From: Octopus sinensis | Taxonomy: Eukaryota | Length of the DNA stretch: 64,000 bases | Reading direction: 5' to 3' | NCBI RefSeq assembly: GCF_006345805.1 | Contig: NC_043013.1 | Location: 27,776,001 to 27,840,000 of the forward strand | Position numbers and translations under genes: made by a program | Notes under the pieces: model-generated | What the model was told of the DNA's origin: nothing | Databases searched by the model: none | What the model saw: the letters and a program-made list of their open reading frames with translations, nothing else | Shown: in pieces, positions 2,776 through 63,702 of the stretch | How the letters are laid out: each line of letters opens with the position of its first letter | How positions within the stretch are numbered: position 1 is the stretch's first letter

Positions 2776-3249
2776 TTGGATAGCAATGCATTAAAATACT
2801 CATTGATTAAAGTGGATAGGAGAAATACTGAATATATTTTGTAGAGTATAATGAATTAATTCTGATGATGACATTAGTTTCTTTGCAGATCTTCATTAGA
2901 GAACGAAAATTCAATATATGATGGAAAGACAAGTTAAAGTGGCCCCATAAACAAATGAATGTATAAATACAACATGAGTTGCACGTGATTTAGCAATAAA
3001 TAGGGAGGAATTATTCTTGGATATAATTAAAAGAAAAAATTGGAAAATGAAACAAAAACATTGAAAAATGAAATAAAGTTGGAGTTAAGTGAGACAACTG
3101 TTGTTATCGTTAGGCCTAACTCATCGTAAAGTCAATACCACCATGACTGATATCCAATCTACAGTGGAGAAGGCTAGCCACTGGATTTGGTTAAAAAGAG
3201 ATGATGAGCGATGGCTAGAAGTATATTGAGTTCTTCATAACCAGCTGAT

Positions 3250-3361
3250 CTAGCAAGCGGGGCCTCATATCAGTGAGGGGGACTGGTGCGCATTGATGCC
3301 GTTGAGAGGTAGGCCCCGAAACGGCGCGCATTCTCTCCTGATGACCCCATACACTTGCTAG
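3250..3361 (+). ncRNA. Candidate permuted/pseudoknotted hammerhead-like ribozyme (copy A)
   Basis: Stem II ggggcct 3259-65/aggcccc 3311-17; GAAA 3318-21; stem III gccgt 3298-3302/acggc 3321-25; GUU site at 3303; stem I gagag 3304-08/ctctc 3333-37; CUGAUGA 3338-44; outer stem ctagcaag/cttgctag. Confidence 0.55.
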
Positions 3362-3868
3362 CTTCCGTATATACGGAGCTTTTAACTGGTAGCACTTGCA
3401 TGTGCAAGTTGTTTGCAAGATATTATTTCAGATAAAATCGTGGATAAGGGAGATAAGTCAGTATAAGTTTACGCAAAGACAAATTAATAGTGAAAGGTAA
3501 ATGTAAATGAATGAGAGATATCTTAGAGTGAGATAATTATGATGGGAAAGCTTAAAATCATGAAGGTTATTAAAATGGATAATTAAATAATTAATTAATG
3601 CTATGGGATAAAGCAGAATATTTAATCAGGGCAATACATATTAGACATTATCAGAATAGTGTAAATTTGGAGGAGAGGAGGTTAAATTTATGATAGAGAC
3701 TTACTTTTAAATATTTGGAATTAAATGTCAGATTTTCAGTCTTGTAGTTCTAGATATTCACGATATAATTGTAAGTGCAAACACCAAAGATGAATATATT
3801 GAACTTAATTGCGTTACTTAAGTAGAGTTATAGAGACATATTATCACTGTGTGTGTGTGTGTGTGTGT

Positions 3869-6730: not shown

Positions 6731-7281
6731 TGTGTGTGTGTGTCATTATTCAGTTTTATTTCAAGATTTCTTGTCAATAAAGAGCTGGTTTCTAACCTAG
6801 AACCAAGGCTTCTTCATTGGAATTTCAAGATCATCAGAGTGTTTTTATATATATGTATGTATATGTGCAGATTTGTCTCTTTTGTTTTATGTATGTATTC
6901 TTATGCATATAGTTGCATGTCTAGACATGTTCATACATACTTAAATGATAAACTTCTGGAAAGTTTTGCAGATTTTTACTGTTCCAATAATGGATTAGAT
7001 CTATAATCTTTGAATAAGCTTCCTCCTTTTTGATTTTGAGAAGCCTAATTTCTCAAGATTGGTATTTGGCTAGTGTGTTACATATCCCAGTGCCCCAATA
7101 TTTACAGGTATAAACCTGAAATTGTAATCTGGATAGAGTGGCTGTAGATTCCTCAATAGTTCAGTGTGGGTATTTTCTTTTTTGCTGATCTTTAGTATGT
7201 ATGTGTATGCAGAAACATATATACATACTCACATACACACAAATATTTACACACATATATACACACACGCACGCATATAAA

Positions 7282-13860: not shown

Positions 13861-14290
13861 AACATTATTGGTGAATTGAAGAAATGGAGCTGAACGCAGA
13901 TTGAACAGAAATCGTTTTATTTCATTCTACACGTGTTTCGAAAGGCACAAATTACCAAAATCCGATTGAATAATGGGACCATATTGTGTCTTTCTCTTCC
14001 TGAAGAGAAAGACACAATATGGTCCCATTATTCAATCGGATTTTGGTAATTTGTGCCTTTCGAAACACGTGTAGAATGAAATAAAACGATTTCTGTTCAA
14101 TCTGCGTTCAGCTCCATTTCTTCAATTCACCAATAATGTTTTAAGTTCAATTATCCGCACCAACGCACGGTTGCAACACCATATGGTTGTACCTCCAACC
14201 GTGCTGTTTACTGCTGTGATTTTTGCTACTAAGGTATCGGTTAAACTTTTGATTAATCTACTACAAGATTATTCATCTTTCTATTTCACA
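13861..14290 (+). mobile_element. Penelope-like foldback element: perfect 139-bp palindrome plus tail, with a hammerhead
   Basis: Arms 13861-13999 and 14002-14140. CUGAAGA at 14000-06; stem II gaaagacacaa/ttgtgcctttc; GAAAC-ACGT-GUA at 14062-73. (TA)n on both flanks. Confidence 0.75.
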
Positions 14291-32010: not shown

Positions 32011-34523
32011 TTAAAAGTATGCCATTATTTACCATCCTGTCAGTTTTTATTTAGGTATAGTGTATCTATGATAAACTATCTAATGTGCCTTCCTAAAAAA
32101 AACCCCCAAAAACTGAAGGGCATGACATGGTGTAGGGGCAGATTTAGCCAGTATTTCTGGTATATCAAATGACCTGTAAAGGTTCCTGTGTTGGTTCATT
32201 CATTTATACGATTGCTGGAATTTCTGCAGAGTTGGAATCTCTTTAATATTTCCAACGTTAGTTTAATTTCTTAATTTAGTTGTTTGAATAAGGATCATTG
32301 TTTTCCTACAATTACATATAAAACAGTTGGATCAATACCCTAGCTCCCAGATAGCACTCCCCACTCCACCTCTCTACTGTCCCTTATCAACATGATTATC
32401 TATAAATCTAGGAAACGAAGACCTTGTAATTTTTAAAAAAGATTTTTTCTTTGTTTTACTTTCTTTTTTTTCTTTTTTTAAAACAATATAAACCCACTTG
32501 TGTATCGTGTTTCTTTTGATCTCAGTAAATATCTAGGTTTGATGCATTTTATTCTTGGTTTGTTTGGAATTCCACTTCAATTAATCATTACAATGAACTA
32601 TAACAGAATTTATTCAATTTATTTAATTCAACATCATCATCATCATCATAATCATTGTTCATTGTTCATTGTCATTGTTGTTATCATCAGTGTTATCATG
32701 CTCCACCTCCTCTTCTTCTTCTTCCTCCTCCTCCTGATCATCATCATACTTCCAATACTCAAATATATTTATGGCTTCGTGCCAATGTAAAAAGAAGGAA
32801 AAAAAACCCTTGTTAGTAGCCATATTAGAATCACTATTGCTTTCAACAGGAAAACACAATATTTAGAGAGGTATCTCTAAAAAATTCTATTTTCCTGCAC
32901 AAATAAATGCATGATCTGGCCACATTTTGTTAACATTTCCTTTTATCACGACACTATCAAATATGATGAAGGCTATGCTAATTCACTAAAGAGGTCAGAA
33001 CAAGGCTGTATCATTGCAGAGTTGTCTCCCATACTTGTCAAATAGATGATAACACTATTAGTAATAGTCTAGTACAGTTTTTCTCTAAACACATATTTTT
33101 GCATGTTTCATCTATACTTTGGTCCAATGTAGAACATCAGTCATGTTTCCAGAAGATGTGCGTTCATGTCACATGAGTAGCTGTCAACTTTTTCGATGTA
33201 AGGGAGGTTGTTTATTGCTATTAGGACGGATATCCAGCTGTAGAAACTATTCTAAAGCTGGCACTGGAACTCACCACAGATCCCATCAAACCATCCGGCC
33301 TATTCCAGCATGGAAAGCAGACATTAAATGATGATGACAAGCTATCCTTTTGGAGATAATGTCGGGTTGTGGTAGCCTTTTCATTTTGTTTTGTTGAGGA
33401 CTTGACAACTTCTCTAGAGTTGCAGCAATAACAAAATATATCCAAAGTACTCTGTAAATGGGTTGGTGTTTGGAAGGGCATCCAACCAGATAAACTATGC
33501 TGAAATAAATTTAACGATGTGTCCGCAACACAAGCCATGAGGACAGTAACTCCAAATATGAACTAACATGGAACTTGGTGACTTGTCCAATCCAAGCCAA
33601 CGTGAAAAACAGATGTGAAATAATGATGAGGATGATGATGATGATGATGACGACGGTAATGATGATGATGTTGCCAGTGATGAATATGCTAATACTAACT
33701 TAACCTTCTGTAAATGTGTGACTTGAAACAGTATTAATGAGTAAAATAAACAGCATGTGATAACAAAGATCAAATTAGGAAACGGGTGGCATCTCTTTAT
33801 ATACAGTATTATCTTTCTCATAAAATTCATCATCATCATCATCATCATCGTCGTCAATAGCAGCAGCAGCAGCATGTCTGTAATTTCAGTGAGCAGCTTG
33901 TTTGCTGAAATTATAAACAAGGCCACTGGTTTTTGTTAGATTCACTCTTCCTGTGTTGCTTCTGACTGATGAGACACAACAATGTCAAAACACTGACTGT
34001 CCCAGGATCCCTTGTATCAATGTATTATGATCACATATGCATTGTAAAGAAGCTGTGACAAAATACAAGTGATTGGCGTTAGGAAGGGCATCCAGCTGTA
34101 GAAACTCTGCCAGATCAAGATTGGAGCCTGGTGCAGCCATCTGGTTCACCAGCCCTCAGTCAAAATCGTCCAATCCATGCTAGCATGGAAAGCAGACGTT
34201 AAACGATGTTGATGATGATGTTGATGATGATGAATCTGCTGGAGTATATATTCCTTTTGATTCTTACTGTTCACCATGCATAGCACGATTTATTAGGTAG
34301 CAAACTGGTCAGGTGAGTTGAGTGTTGTAGTGATTGTCACATATACACACATACACATGTGTGTGCATGTGTGTATCTATACGAATGTATGTGTATGTGT
34401 GTATATGTGAGCGCTTCTGTGTGTGTACATAGGCATATATACATATTCAATATGTGACAGCATGTGTATCGTTGACGACTTTCTTTCTCTATCTTCCTTT
34501 CCTTGGACCATTCCTTTTTCTAT

Positions 34524-34558
34524 GTTTCTGACGAAGAGCTCCTCTCGAAACGTTAAAT
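34524..34558 (+). ncRNA. Minimal Penelope-type hammerhead
   Basis: gttt-CTGACGA-a-gagctcctctc-GAAAC-GT-T-aaat, with the palindromic AACGTT stem III. It lies in a pyrimidine-rich pLTR-like unit (34470-34665) that ends in (TA)n. Confidence 0.65.
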
Positions 34559-35132
34559 CCTCCTTCTTTCTTTCCTTTTCTGAGTGTTCAATAACACTAT
34601 ACTTGTTCCACATCCTCGCGTCATTGCGTTTTCTATTTGTTCATGTTTGGATTAACTATATATATACATTGTTTGTGTGTGGGAGGATATGTGTGAGTCT
34701 CTGTGTGCATATGTAAGTATGTATTTGATCACTGAATACTGAAGGTTAGCTAATAAAATTTGCATGTGCAGCATACCATGAAGAACAGATCACTGATCAG
34801 CTGGTACCAAAACAGCCATCTACTACCACTTACAGCAGTCCAACAAACACATTCTGGCAGCAAACGACACGACTCTACCAGCTGCTACAAAACTCAAACC
34901 AAGATGAACAGATGAAGATTTTAAACTAATAGAGACAACACTTGAATATCATCTGAGGAAACACAACTAGATCACATTATGCAAACAAACAGTTGCATAA
35001 TCAAATACCTGTATTTTTGGAGAGCCACATTGGGTGGAAACAATTGTAGCGATTAAAAAATAACTATCCAACCATACTCCTTCTTGTTGACTTCAATTTC
35101 TTCAATGTTATATATATATATATATATATACA

Positions 35133-58141: not shown

Positions 58142-58643
58142 AGTAATTAAGGGTTTAGCAACGATTTGCCTCACCACACACCGAATTTAGAAATAGCAGT
58201 CAAAGAGTTATGGCTATTCTTTCTACTTAAAAGAGAGATCTCAGTAAAACCACAGCACTTAAAAGGCAAACAACGCAGGTAAAAGAGAAAGAAGGTAAAA
58301 GAGAAACGACAATCATTCTATATTAAGTCACCTACGGACGTACGTTTCGAAATTAAGTCATAGGAAAGCATAAAAATTAAATAATTATGCCTTACCCGAC
58401 TACTTTTCTCCTCAGCGTAGGACTCTACAATCATAAGTGCTACAATCATAAGCAGAAAGAATAGCCATAACTCTTTGACTGCTATTTCTAAATTCGGGGT
58501 ATGGTGAGGCAAATCGTTGCTAAACCCTTAATTACTTAGTATTACTTAAACCTTCCTCGAATGGGGTTTTTACATGCCGAAATCTACTTGGTGAAATTAA
58601 TGATTACTCCAAATTAATTGATTTCACCCTATATTATTATTGA

Positions 58644-58648: not shown

Positions 58649-58684
<36 letters not shown>

Positions 58685-58751
58685 GTAAAAAAATACAAAC
58701 TGGGACAAGAACGCAAAACATTTAGAAGACGATACAAAAAACACAGACGGG

Positions 58752-58897
58752 ACATTCGAAGCCTTCAATCTTCAGTCAAGAACCGGATCATCCTCGCAAT
58801 TTCGGCTGATTAATCTTGAGATTGCTCCGACCTGGCCAGCCCCAAAGGAAAATCTAAGCCAAGCGCATTAGATTCCTTGGGAGAAAGCCTCGAATGT
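58752..58897 (-). ncRNA. Candidate permuted/pseudoknotted hammerhead-like ribozyme (copy B)
   Basis: Minus strand: ggctgg 58841-36/tcagcc 58809-04; GAAA 58803-800; gcaat 58825-21/attgc 58800-796; AUC site at 58820; tcaaga 58819-14/tcttga 58781-76; CUGAAGA 58775-69; 14-bp outer stem. Confidence 0.6.
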
Positions 58898-59339
58898 ATA
58901 CAAAACAAGGACAAGAACAAATAAGAATTCAAAAATATGTAAAAATAATAATGATAACATGAATAAGAATACGAAAATACGTAAAAACAATAATATATAT
59001 GTATATATATATATATATGTATATGTGTATGTATATGTATATATATATATATATGTATATTGTTATATATATATACATATTGTTGCATTTCAGGATGGTC
59101 ATTTATTTATTTTGCCAAATAAACACATGCACTATAAATTTGTTCTTCACTTGTTTATTACTGTTCTTATTGTGACTCATTTCCATTGTCCGGAAATCTT
59201 TTATCACACATCTGTGACCTTTTCAGTGACACTTTTCCTCTTCATGTGTGCTCTCGCTTCTCTGTTTATGGTTCTGATAATGAAATGATTTTGAACCAAG
59301 CCACCCTTGTATTTCTTACCATGATATGGGTGTAGCTGG

Positions 59340-59584: not shown

Positions 59585-60754
59585 GATTGATTGATTGATT
59601 GATTGATTCTAGTTTCAGCTTATGAGCTGTGGCCATGCTGGGGCACTGCCATTTGGTGTTGCTACTTGGTTTCACTTCATGAAGGCTTTCTAGCAACTGC
59701 TATTTGGTGCATGAGAGAGTTCGATGCAGCTGCCCTCATCTGCCCCTCCTGCCGTGAAGTTGGTTCATCTGGGACACCTGACAGGAAGAGATCCAGCTTC
59801 ATTTTAAAGACATCTGCATCCACCCCATGCAGGTCTCTTAGGTTCTTCGGGAGGATATTGAAGAGCTGTGGGCCTCGGAAGCCCAGGCTATCACAGAATC
59901 TTGTCCTACATCTTGATGGCAAGTTTGGAGTCCTAGGCACCATGCAGTGGCGCCCAGTTCTGGCATTTGCGTAACTCTCGATGCCAAAGTTCAGGACACT
60001 TCCCTCCAGGATCTTCCAGATGTATATTATGGCATATCTTTCCGCCTACGCTCCAGGGAATATAGTTTTAATCTCTTGAGTCTTTCCCAGTAGCTTACAT
60101 TCTGCATAGAGGCTATCTTCTTCGTGTAGCTACGTTGGATCGCCTCGAGCTCTGTGATCAACTTGACACTGGATGGTGACCATAACTGAGAGCAGTAGTC
60201 AAAGTGGCTTAGGACAGTGTCCTCCAGAGGCCATCATGGTTTCTTGTTCTCTTGTTCTAAAGGTTCTGAGGATCCATCCGGCCAGTCGTCTACATTTCAT
60301 TGCCAATTTAGCAACATGTACGCGAAAGGTCGCATCATCACTCATGTAAATACCTAGGTCACGCACTGATTGTGCCTCTGGGATTGCTATTCATCCGGGT
60401 CCAGTGTATTCATTGGGTATTGCATTTAGTTTTGCATGCTGATAGTATAGAGCTTGAAACTTTTCAGCATTGAACTGCATGCTATTCTTTTCGGCCCACT
60501 TGTATATTTTGTCTAGCTCACATTGCAGGTGTTTAGTGTCCTCAGGGTTCTGTATTGCCTGTGAACTTTTGTATCATCTGCATAACTTGTGATCGTGGCT
60601 CTCTGCGTGGCTGAGGGCATGTCTGAGAGGGCCATTATGAACAGTAGTGGTCCCAGAACAGTGCCCTGCGGAACACCGCTCACTATTTGCGTGTTAATGG
60701 AAGTGGCCCCATTGGCCACTACCACCTGACTTCTATCTTTTAGAAAGTCATGAA
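59585..60754 (-). mobile_element. 5'-truncated CR1/L2-group LINE (RT domain to 3' tail)
   Basis: FLKDRSQVVVANG...SGVPQGTVLGPLLFI...SYADDTKV, C-terminus LDLFLSGVPDEP...RAAASNSL, 3' UTR gtgccccagcatggccacagc...ctgaaac and an (AATC)n tail. Frameshifted. Confidence 0.92.
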
Positions 60755-62845: not shown

Positions 62846-63666
62846 CTCTAAATAATATTCATAATAATGATATTATAACACCAACTATTTCAGTCAACAG
62901 CTCAGTATGGTTTATTTATTAGTAACTCTATTCTATGGTCAGTAAGTTTAATGCCAATTAAATTTCTGTTGGATAACAAGAAAGCCAATGCACTTCAGAT
63001 CTGGTTGCAGAGTTGCAGCAGAGTTGTTGCCCCTTGACTTTTGAAAATGGTTTTCATTTTGCTGCAAGATTGCATGTATTTAATCTTACAACCAAATATG
63101 TTTTAATGTCAATAGATATATTAATATCTTACAAGCAGATACATTTAGGCAAACAAACTGGGGAATCGATACTCAACACACATAATACAGTGTATTTATT
63201 TAAAGCTGAAGTTTCATTCACTTGCTACACCTTCCAGCAACAAAAACATGAATGAAGGAATTCAGTTCAAGGAAATCACTGTGTCCAGACTTGGAGGGGG
63301 ATGAGTTACACCATGTTTAAAAGAAATTCCCAATCATATAGTTTCAGGTTTAGTCCCACTGCATTGGACCTTGGGCAACTGTCGTATTCAATAGTCCCAG
63401 GTTGACCTATGCTTTGTGAGTGAATTAGATAAATGGAAACTGAAGAAGCCTGTCGTGTGTGTGTGTGTGTGTATATAGTATCAGAAGCAGATTAGTGCAA
63501 AATTAAATGAAAACCTTATGTAGTCCATAACAAGTCATTAATCCACCATCAGATATGGTTTTACTGTCATACAAGGACTCTTCTATTCACATCACCATTG
63601 ACTGTCATGATTGACTGCTAGCTCCAAGTCTTTTTTTATTCTGTCTCTGTTTATTTCTTGGTGTTC

Positions 63667-63702
63667 CTTTCTGATGAAGAGCGTAGGCTCAAAACATAAA
63701 AG
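63667..63702 (+). ncRNA. CpG-decayed minimal hammerhead
   Basis: cttt-CTGATGA-a-gagcgtaggctc-aaaacat-a-aaag. Stems I and II are intact, but GAAAC-GT has decayed to AAAAC-AT. It lies in a pyrimidine-rich unit ending in (CT)n(TA)n. Confidence 0.6.

Follow-up and report, generated by a model that had tools for sequence, protein, structure and literature searches.

Positions 3250-3361 (+) of the window, as the whole 64,000-nucleotide stretch of Octopus sinensis DNA is called here, probably hold a decayed copy (copy A) of a hammerhead-type motif that resides in the 3′ UTRs of HERO-like LINEs, and whose intact copies would self-cleave after GUC and give rise to a nicked RNA. As far as the searches reach, this would be an undescribed hammerhead variant, in which the connectivity of the type-SGC ribozymes is combined with a catalytic strand opened by two helices, and which appears to be conserved in LINE 3′ UTRs. 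The predicted fold is the firmest part of this reading and is very likely to be correct.

Helices of the motif and the register of stem II

Read from the sequence together with covariation, the strand order is 5′-P4-P5-II(10.x)-P6-III-UH-I-II(11.x)-GAAA-III-P6-I-CUGAnGA-P4-3′. The 5′ strand of P4 (3250-3262, +) consists of an outer arm, where CUAGCAAG (3250-57) faces CUUGCUAG (3354-61), and an inner GGGG (3259-62), which pairs in the co-fold with the CCCC (3345-48) found just after CUGAUGA; the 3′ strand (3345-3361, +) begins directly after A9. Next come the hairpin P5 (3263-3278, +), which stands directly 5′ of G10.1 and whose strands also join an alternative rod with the core and stem I, and the 5′ strand of stem II (positions 10.1-10.6; 3279-3284, +), decayed at 3282 and 3284. 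The P6 5′ strand UGCGC (3287-3291, +), earlier labelled IIIb, pairs with 3326-30. Block S (3298-3308, +) contains the stem III strand GCCGU (3298-3302, with U16.1 at 3302), H17 (3303) and the stem I strand GAGAG (3304-08), so that the cut in copy A is predicted at 3303/3304 (H17 = U3303). Block G (3312-3325, +) comprises the stem II 3′ strand (3312-17), GAAA (3318-21) and a stem III strand reaching up to 3325 (ACGGC, 3321-25), and the stretch 3326-3344 (+), the first half of a split block C, holds the P6 3′ strand GCGCA (3326-30), the stem I strand CUCUC (3333-37) and CUGAUGA (3338-44). Stems I and II are pseudoknots as in the type-SGC ribozymes; the difference is that here the ends of the chain come in between A9 and G10.1. 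P6 is the stem I-II interaction helix of those ribozymes, with the connectivity that the excerpted text of PMC10085705 gives for its circled-I helix. Two further hairpins had been noticed 3′ of the motif, and both are found among the folds of the tail (3364-3409, +): P7 (3364-77), with 97% of cells paired, and P8 (3394-3409) are the terminal hairpins of the 3′ UTR.

The sequence words from which the preliminary description composed the motif all lie where it had placed them in copy A. A descriptor of the S-G-C helices finds exactly two sites in the window, copies A and B, at all three stringencies, against 0.053, 0.033 and 0.007 sites per window in locally shuffled windows (300 shuffles), and of 120 viral control loci whose core words match in order and spacing none passes a threshold of at least 4 for both stem I and stem III. 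A chance arrangement in a GC-rich island would fit the lack of any match to Rfam hammerhead models (threshold E<=10 for 3100-3500 and E<=0.5 for five loci), but covariance models cannot represent the strand order of the split-SGC motif, and the null rates, the covariation and the conservation after the ORF in nine loci leave this explanation with practically no probability, the homologues having refuted it. The initial proposal that the motif is a conserved class with permuted hammerhead topology is instead borne out, across several element families, by shuffles, post-ORF homologues and covariation alike. On the whole window, Rfam gave only microsatellite-driven miRNA matches among the matches listed. 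No minus-strand hammerhead was found by the descriptor at copy A, the patterns of family A and copy B occur 0 and 0 times in viral contigs, and protein scans of viral contigs gave no confirmed match.

The letters expected of a hammerhead core are retained. CUGAnGA 3′ of the stem I strand and GAAA with A15.1-U16.1 are exact in copy A, copy B and five mapped homologues, and the cleavage triplet conforms to NUH with H other than G (GUU in the window copy; GUC, GUA or AUC in homologues). Stems I, II and III surround the core with a G10.1-C11.1 pair and with covariation. In the helix map of seven copies, which includes L006 and copy B, the core words are exact, N7 varies (U, G or A among homologues), H is never G, the G10.1-C11.1 pair is present in all seven, and the linkers joining A9, P4, P5 and G10.1 measure 0-2 nt throughout. 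The five helices P4, P5, I, II and III recur at corresponding places in L006 and copy B with unrelated sequences, and at P5's position each has a hairpin that shares no sequence with that of copy A. The helix mapping thus upholds the claim that copy B (58753-58896, -; predicted cut after 58820) shares the topology of copy A, with a split-SGC architecture in an unrelated sequence family. The region of copy B (58680-58990, -) is a 300-nt T-rich element with (TA)n on both sides and no coding parent nearby; 123 query proteins gave no RLE-LINE match near it.

One strand of the preliminary model had to be moved. The 5′ strand of stem II had been taken to be GGGGCCU (3259-65), and it is placed here at 3279-84 because the homologues have it there, after the hairpin P5, which had been overlooked. 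Covariation was assessed in an alignment of copy A and eight homologues, L006 and B being left out as not alignable by sequence. With the corrected model 90.6% of cells in the nine sequences are paired and both sides are changed in 13 pairs, and neither value is reached in any of 500 shuffles (slid controls, 41-48%), in a test that ignores relatedness. With GGGGCCU, 79.4% of cells are paired, a value reached in 68 of 500 shuffles, and the 10.1-11.1 pair forms in 3 of 9 sequences. A stem II built on this upstream strand, with the rod acting as a switch, can point to seven perfect pairs in the window copy and L010 and to one double change in L004, and it could be a competing fold in the decayed copy A; its pairing is nevertheless absent in L001, L005 and L006, and it would destroy both the inner part of P4 and P5, so that as the general arrangement it is highly improbable.

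Compensatory changes support stems I-III in the S-G-C order. In P4, both sides are changed in 8 of 12 pairs (alignment of copy A and the eight homologues), and stem II, in the 3279-84 register, has double changes in L001 and L003. P5 has 90.7% of its cells paired and shows no double change within family A; neither P5 nor stem I has one inside the nine-sequence alignment, and their covariation rests on L006 and B. The natural covariation that had been read from copies A and B therefore exists, but its source is the fetched homologues; a comparison of A with B alone is weak evidence, since the two cannot be aligned by sequence.

A HERO-like LINE as host, and its relatives

Copy A belongs to a 5′-truncated, high-copy LINE of the RLE type (R2 superfamily, HERO-like), which extends over 3089-3420 (+) and holds the end of the ORF and the whole 3′ UTR, as judged from depth, loose ends and the alignment of L010 (to 3162-3412, at 77%). 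The tail of the RT/RLE ORF (3089-3229, +) consists of the final 46 codons and a stop, and translation of 3089-3226 yields 46 residues resembling the C-terminus of long RT proteins (five matches among ten candidates, best E 1.5e-9). RVT_1 is present in two of the matched proteins (P0003, P0004), and a PD..ELTVP..K motif, which we take to be the active site of the restriction-like endonuclease (RLE), is visible in the matched LINE proteins. The motif stands 74 nt past the ORF stop and ~115-117 nt short of the element end, and teleost HERO 3′ ends presumably have the same block order as the motif in copy A. In a wider protein search, named relatives were found in teleosts, lancelet and mussel at ~37-42% identity (120 of 184 relatives listed). 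An ORF with an RT followed by a C-terminal restriction-like endonuclease is the layout of the HERO clade, and the host range of that clade, as excerpted from PMC9004415, overlaps the hosts of these relatives. By both layout and host overlap, the parent of copy A would be a HERO-like LINE.

Contigs of four sequencing runs (one of which, X17, is only guessed to be RNA), mapped to the window, give the family letters and depth. Summed depth reaches ~5-8e5 across 3114-3401, compared with 43-46 on the flanks (run X1), and although it is not a copy number, this implies a very large family. The contigs of the four runs cover 3089 to ~3420, other copies run into ORF sequence before 3089, and loose ends are found at 3089 and 3418-3420 in the DNA runs; past ~3420 the flanks are heterogeneous (agreement ~0.45), so the copies of the family must be dispersed. 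On these data, copy A is a dispersed, 5′-truncated LINE insertion with the motif within its 3′ UTR, in a window of AT-rich, microsatellite-rich animal DNA. A Penelope RT/GIY-YIG or tandem retrozyme setting, which had been raised as a possibility, does not apply: the motif of copy A is single in the window and fused to the C-terminus of an RLE-LINE.

A scan of metagenome contigs returned 12 loci (L001-L012), and the motif is found behind the ORF in nine of them (L001-L006, L008-L010), 57-195 nt from the ORF stop in the loci measured. It was not found in L011 and L012, the most divergent of the 12, and the contig of L007 stops short of the site that the motif occupies in its relative L006. Identity among the carrier elements is 37-55% in the ORF C-terminus. 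L001 combines one unbroken ORF match over 53-1975 with a flawless motif, and core lesions are present in L003, L004 and L009. Since one assembly supplied six of the nine loci, and a single subfamily accounts for five of those six, the material represents ~7 independent lineages, copies A and B included. Judged by what we take to be the RNA polymerase III consensus, words resembling A and B boxes occur within the 3′ UTR, immediately before the motif (L006:1620-1700, L007:1250-1322); they could mark a SINE-like short transcript holding the ribozyme, and ARAGORN found no tRNA in six loci.

A second set of nine loci was taken from a prokaryotic genome collection (L013-L021). In five of these (L013-L015, L019, L020) the sequence holds no 3′ region, and the motif was not found in L018, in L021 or in the 83-nt tail of L017. 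L016 (4403 nt) represents a distant RLE LINE as a collapsed unit, either tandem or circular, with a 119-nt terminal overlap and 28-31% identity to the HERO-like set; the contig lies in a prokaryotic MAG and is likely eukaryotic contamination. It contains an SGC hammerhead with block C intact (L016:1175-1260, +), a 2-bp stem II and an 8-bp interaction helix, located 208 nt past the stop, between two copies of an intact ORF, and followed by a (GT)n run. This one sequence, which carries no covariation, suggests that the split form may have arisen by re-opening of an SGC-type ancestor at the same position.

Compared with its relatives, copy A appears damaged. Its stem II (3279-84) has one A-C mismatch and one wobble, and three of its letters are private (3282, 3284, 3303). 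The family majority is G at 3282 (94-97% in four runs), C at 3284 (86-95% in the three DNA runs, 39% in X17) and C at 3303 (H17; 95-99% of related-copy depth), a position at which all mapped homologues have C or A. The majority letters at 3282 and 3284 give a perfect stem II of six Watson-Crick pairs, and the one at 3303 makes the triplet GUC, so that the family is intact and copy A decayed. The U described earlier as the cleavage-site letter is present at 3303, but is private to copy A, the family reading C. The expectation that copy A would cut well is not supported: its triplet is GUU and its stem II contains an A-C mismatch, and the window copy is predicted to be unlikely to cleave strongly, whereas cleavage by intact copies is predicted to be likely.

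Folding, predicted cleavage and possible role

Without pseudoknots, the minimum free energy (MFE) fold of copy A is a rod (-46.6 kcal/mol, z -2.82), in which, for family A, the core is paired at 0.64-0.87. The idea that this rod is an inactive switch state survives in part, in that the rod is the MFE fold and is conserved in family A, but it is not the MFE fold of L006 or copy B and can therefore be at most a switch at the level of a family, not a feature of the class. The nested scaffold of P4, P5, P6 and III forms when the strands of stems I and II are held open, and the scaffold with stems I and II added is more stable than the nested MFE, the margin being 10-19 kcal/mol for six copies and 5 kcal/mol for the window copy, pseudoknot loop costs being omitted from these figures.

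In such a fold, P4 would stack on P5 and stem II on the G12-A9 core, creating a four-way junction that should leave the A9/G10.1 stack intact and the active site with normal geometry. Hammerhead chemistry is a G12/G8 acid-base transesterification, and its standard form would operate here. Stem II could close co-transcriptionally, before the competing strand of the rod emerges. Stem I lies wholly in the 3′ product and P4, II, P6 and III bridge the two products, so cleavage would amount to a clamped nick, after which these four helices (~28 bp) would still tie the ORF-bearing 5′ piece to the 3′ tail.

In the sequencing data, depth is the same over the ORF end and beyond the site, the steps around the cut site are no larger than those elsewhere, with none specific to it, and no indels or loose ends at 3303/3304 occur among those listed for the four runs. 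Inserted copies span the site, and the cut thus does not define the element end. The role proposed here is that of a reversible nick, which would break the covalent link of the coding RNA to its 3′ end and so limit expression and template supply, a proposal that is tentative and falls a little short of an even call. New insertions would then derive from uncut RNA (rod-folded or protein-held), from re-ligated RNA or from template-jumped RNA.

Copies that keep both sides of the site also fit an RNA that cuts rarely or never. This leads to a reading of the motif as a hammerhead-derived, largely non-cleaving platform for RT binding or priming, like the structured R2 3′ UTR, for which the insertions that keep both sides of the site, the sequestration of the core by the rod in family A, and a conservation of sequence in stem I and P5 beyond what pairing alone needs can all be cited. 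Such a platform is improbable when set against the retention of CUGAnGA, GAAA, A15.1-U16.1 and a non-G H17 across families with unrelated helices; with the core kept, N7 and H17 vary only in permitted ways, which is the pattern expected from selection on catalysis.

The same ribozyme might instead process read-through or tandem transcripts to RNAs of unit length, perhaps circular. L016 lends this some weight, as its contig is a collapsed unit, tandem or circular, in which two copies of the ORF enclose an SGC hammerhead, and so do Penelope-like elements (PLEs), for which a model of this kind was proposed (PMC4209133, in part) and internal RT initiation was shown in one case (excerpt of PMC11167929). 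On the other side, neither in the window nor in L001-L010 does the motif have ORF sequence behind it, the heterogeneous flanks after 3420 bespeak dispersed copies, and no back-joint appears among the joints listed. Production of unit-length RNAs, the strongest of the rival readings, is therefore considered unlikely, as is its corollary that the RT would begin ~115 nt past the junction and proceed through it, and the clamped nick is retained as the preferred reading.

Relation to known ribozymes and wider context

In the study of Eckert et al. 2023 (PMC10085705), the hammerhead was split into blocks C, G and S and the non-circular order SGC was validated, with in vitro cleavage at 0.007-0.19 per min for type-SGC ribozymes of the same connectivity. 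As far as the excerpted text goes, block C is assumed there to be uninterruptible, so that only six orders are considered, and the known alignments are stated to have no insertion of more than 1-2 nt between CUGAnGA and its stems; SGC is known from metatranscriptomes and from no genome of a known organism, the sole genomic non-circular case being a weak GCS candidate. Within the full-text literature searched, the term 'type-SGC' occurs in this one paper.

The class of copy A resembles the type-SGC ribozymes described there (the HRIMA-1 motif and variants) in the block order S-G-C and the two core pseudoknots, in the stem I-II linker (~3 nt in type-SGC; here 3 nt in five of seven copies, range 3-5 nt) and in an extra helix that connects stem I (on its 5′ side) with stem II (on its 3′ side), P6 being part of the scaffold in all seven mapped copies. 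The zero-length join of this helix to stem III is shared with some type-SGC members. Unlike type-SGC, it has a split block C, with the stem II 5′ strand upstream and P4 and P5 between A9 and G10.1, it resides in eukaryotic genomic retrotransposons, and its upstream product is predicted to be clamped by ~28 bp. An intact block C, with stem II within 0-1 nt of CUGAnGA, is not seen in any of the nine descriptor hits, all of which have 0 downstream stem II pairs. The published SGC descriptor, re-coded in Python from the excerpted supplement, gave 0 matches, and only L016 passes a relaxed version; that it misses every split copy would explain why the RefSeq search of PMC10085705 did not recover them.

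With the canonical types I, II and III the class shares the core nucleotides, the NUH rule and the G10.1-C11.1 pair. At the backbone step where P4 and P5 enter, PLE hammerheads tolerate one extra nucleotide before stem II (CChMVd-type; PMC4209133, in part), and copy A departs from both canonical and CChMVd-type forms in its non-circular strand order and in an insertion that is a two-helix junction, not one nucleotide. The hammerhead literature covered, as excerpted, documents no two-helix insertion at A9/G10.1. Within the full-text literature searched, no report was found of the split-SGC topology, of a ribozyme in Hero or of a hammerhead in RLE-LINE 3′ UTRs.

Among retroelements, an analogy is offered by the 5′ HDV-like ribozymes of R2, RTE and L1Tc (PMC6765202, in part), which likewise place a self-cleaving-ribozyme class on an autonomous non-LTR retrotransposon, R2 being of the same RLE group; the motif studied here differs in its hammerhead class, its 3′ UTR location and a predicted cut that lies off the ends of inserted copies. 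Proximity to a retroelement 3′ end and very many animal copies are shared with the hammerheads of Penelope pLTRs and animal retrozymes. From the parts of PMC4209133 and 10.64898/2026.07.22.740005 at hand, those are minimal or type-I, often dimeric, and are located in direct repeats that flank RT/GIY-YIG ORFs or in tandem arrays without coding sequence, whereas copy A is monomeric, pseudoknotted and behind an RT/RLE ORF.

Should the motif cleave, two statements in the excerpted text of PMC10085705 would be overturned, namely that block C cannot be interrupted, with only six orders as a consequence, and that non-circular forms are absent from genomes of known organisms, one weak candidate apart. 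Animal genomes would then contain very many copies of such ribozymes, which neither Rfam nor the published descriptors pick up, and the R2 superfamily, from which 5′ HDV-like ribozymes have been described, would gain a 3′ hammerhead. It would also raise the question of how a LINE inserts sequence from both sides of its own cut site, and a ribozyme that nicks without release, with free ends at A9/G10.1, may offer a new handle for RNA engineering. A broader scenario can be drawn from all parts together, although as a whole it is speculative and rather doubtful: RLE LINEs with non-circularly permuted 3′ hammerheads would predate the split of the animal HERO-like families from their distant relatives, an L016-type SGC form would have given rise to a seventh, core-opened permutation, and the clamped nick would be crossed by the RT or a ligase as a step of retrotransposition, with copies on the order of ten thousand in the genome.

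Several other features of the window may be recorded. Minimal type-I-like cores (CUGAnGA, a short hairpin and GAAAC), Penelope-like in appearance, are found at ~34490-34560 (+) and 63630-63700 (+), the second being decayed. The stretch 7004-7111 (-) weakly matches the C-terminal end of a different RLE-type LINE protein (E 1.5e-4), and the split-SGC motif was not found behind it. A frameshifted fragment of another LINE reverse transcriptase (GPLLF..YADD) occupies ~59640-60740 (-), beside a SINE-like repeat, and inverted repeats of ~85 nt, at ~58143-58230 and 58455-58540, surround ~230 nt in a MITE-like arrangement. Finally, a near-perfect 90-nt palindrome at 13956-14045 is centred on a CUGAAGA word and has a sub-threshold miRNA-family match on both strands.
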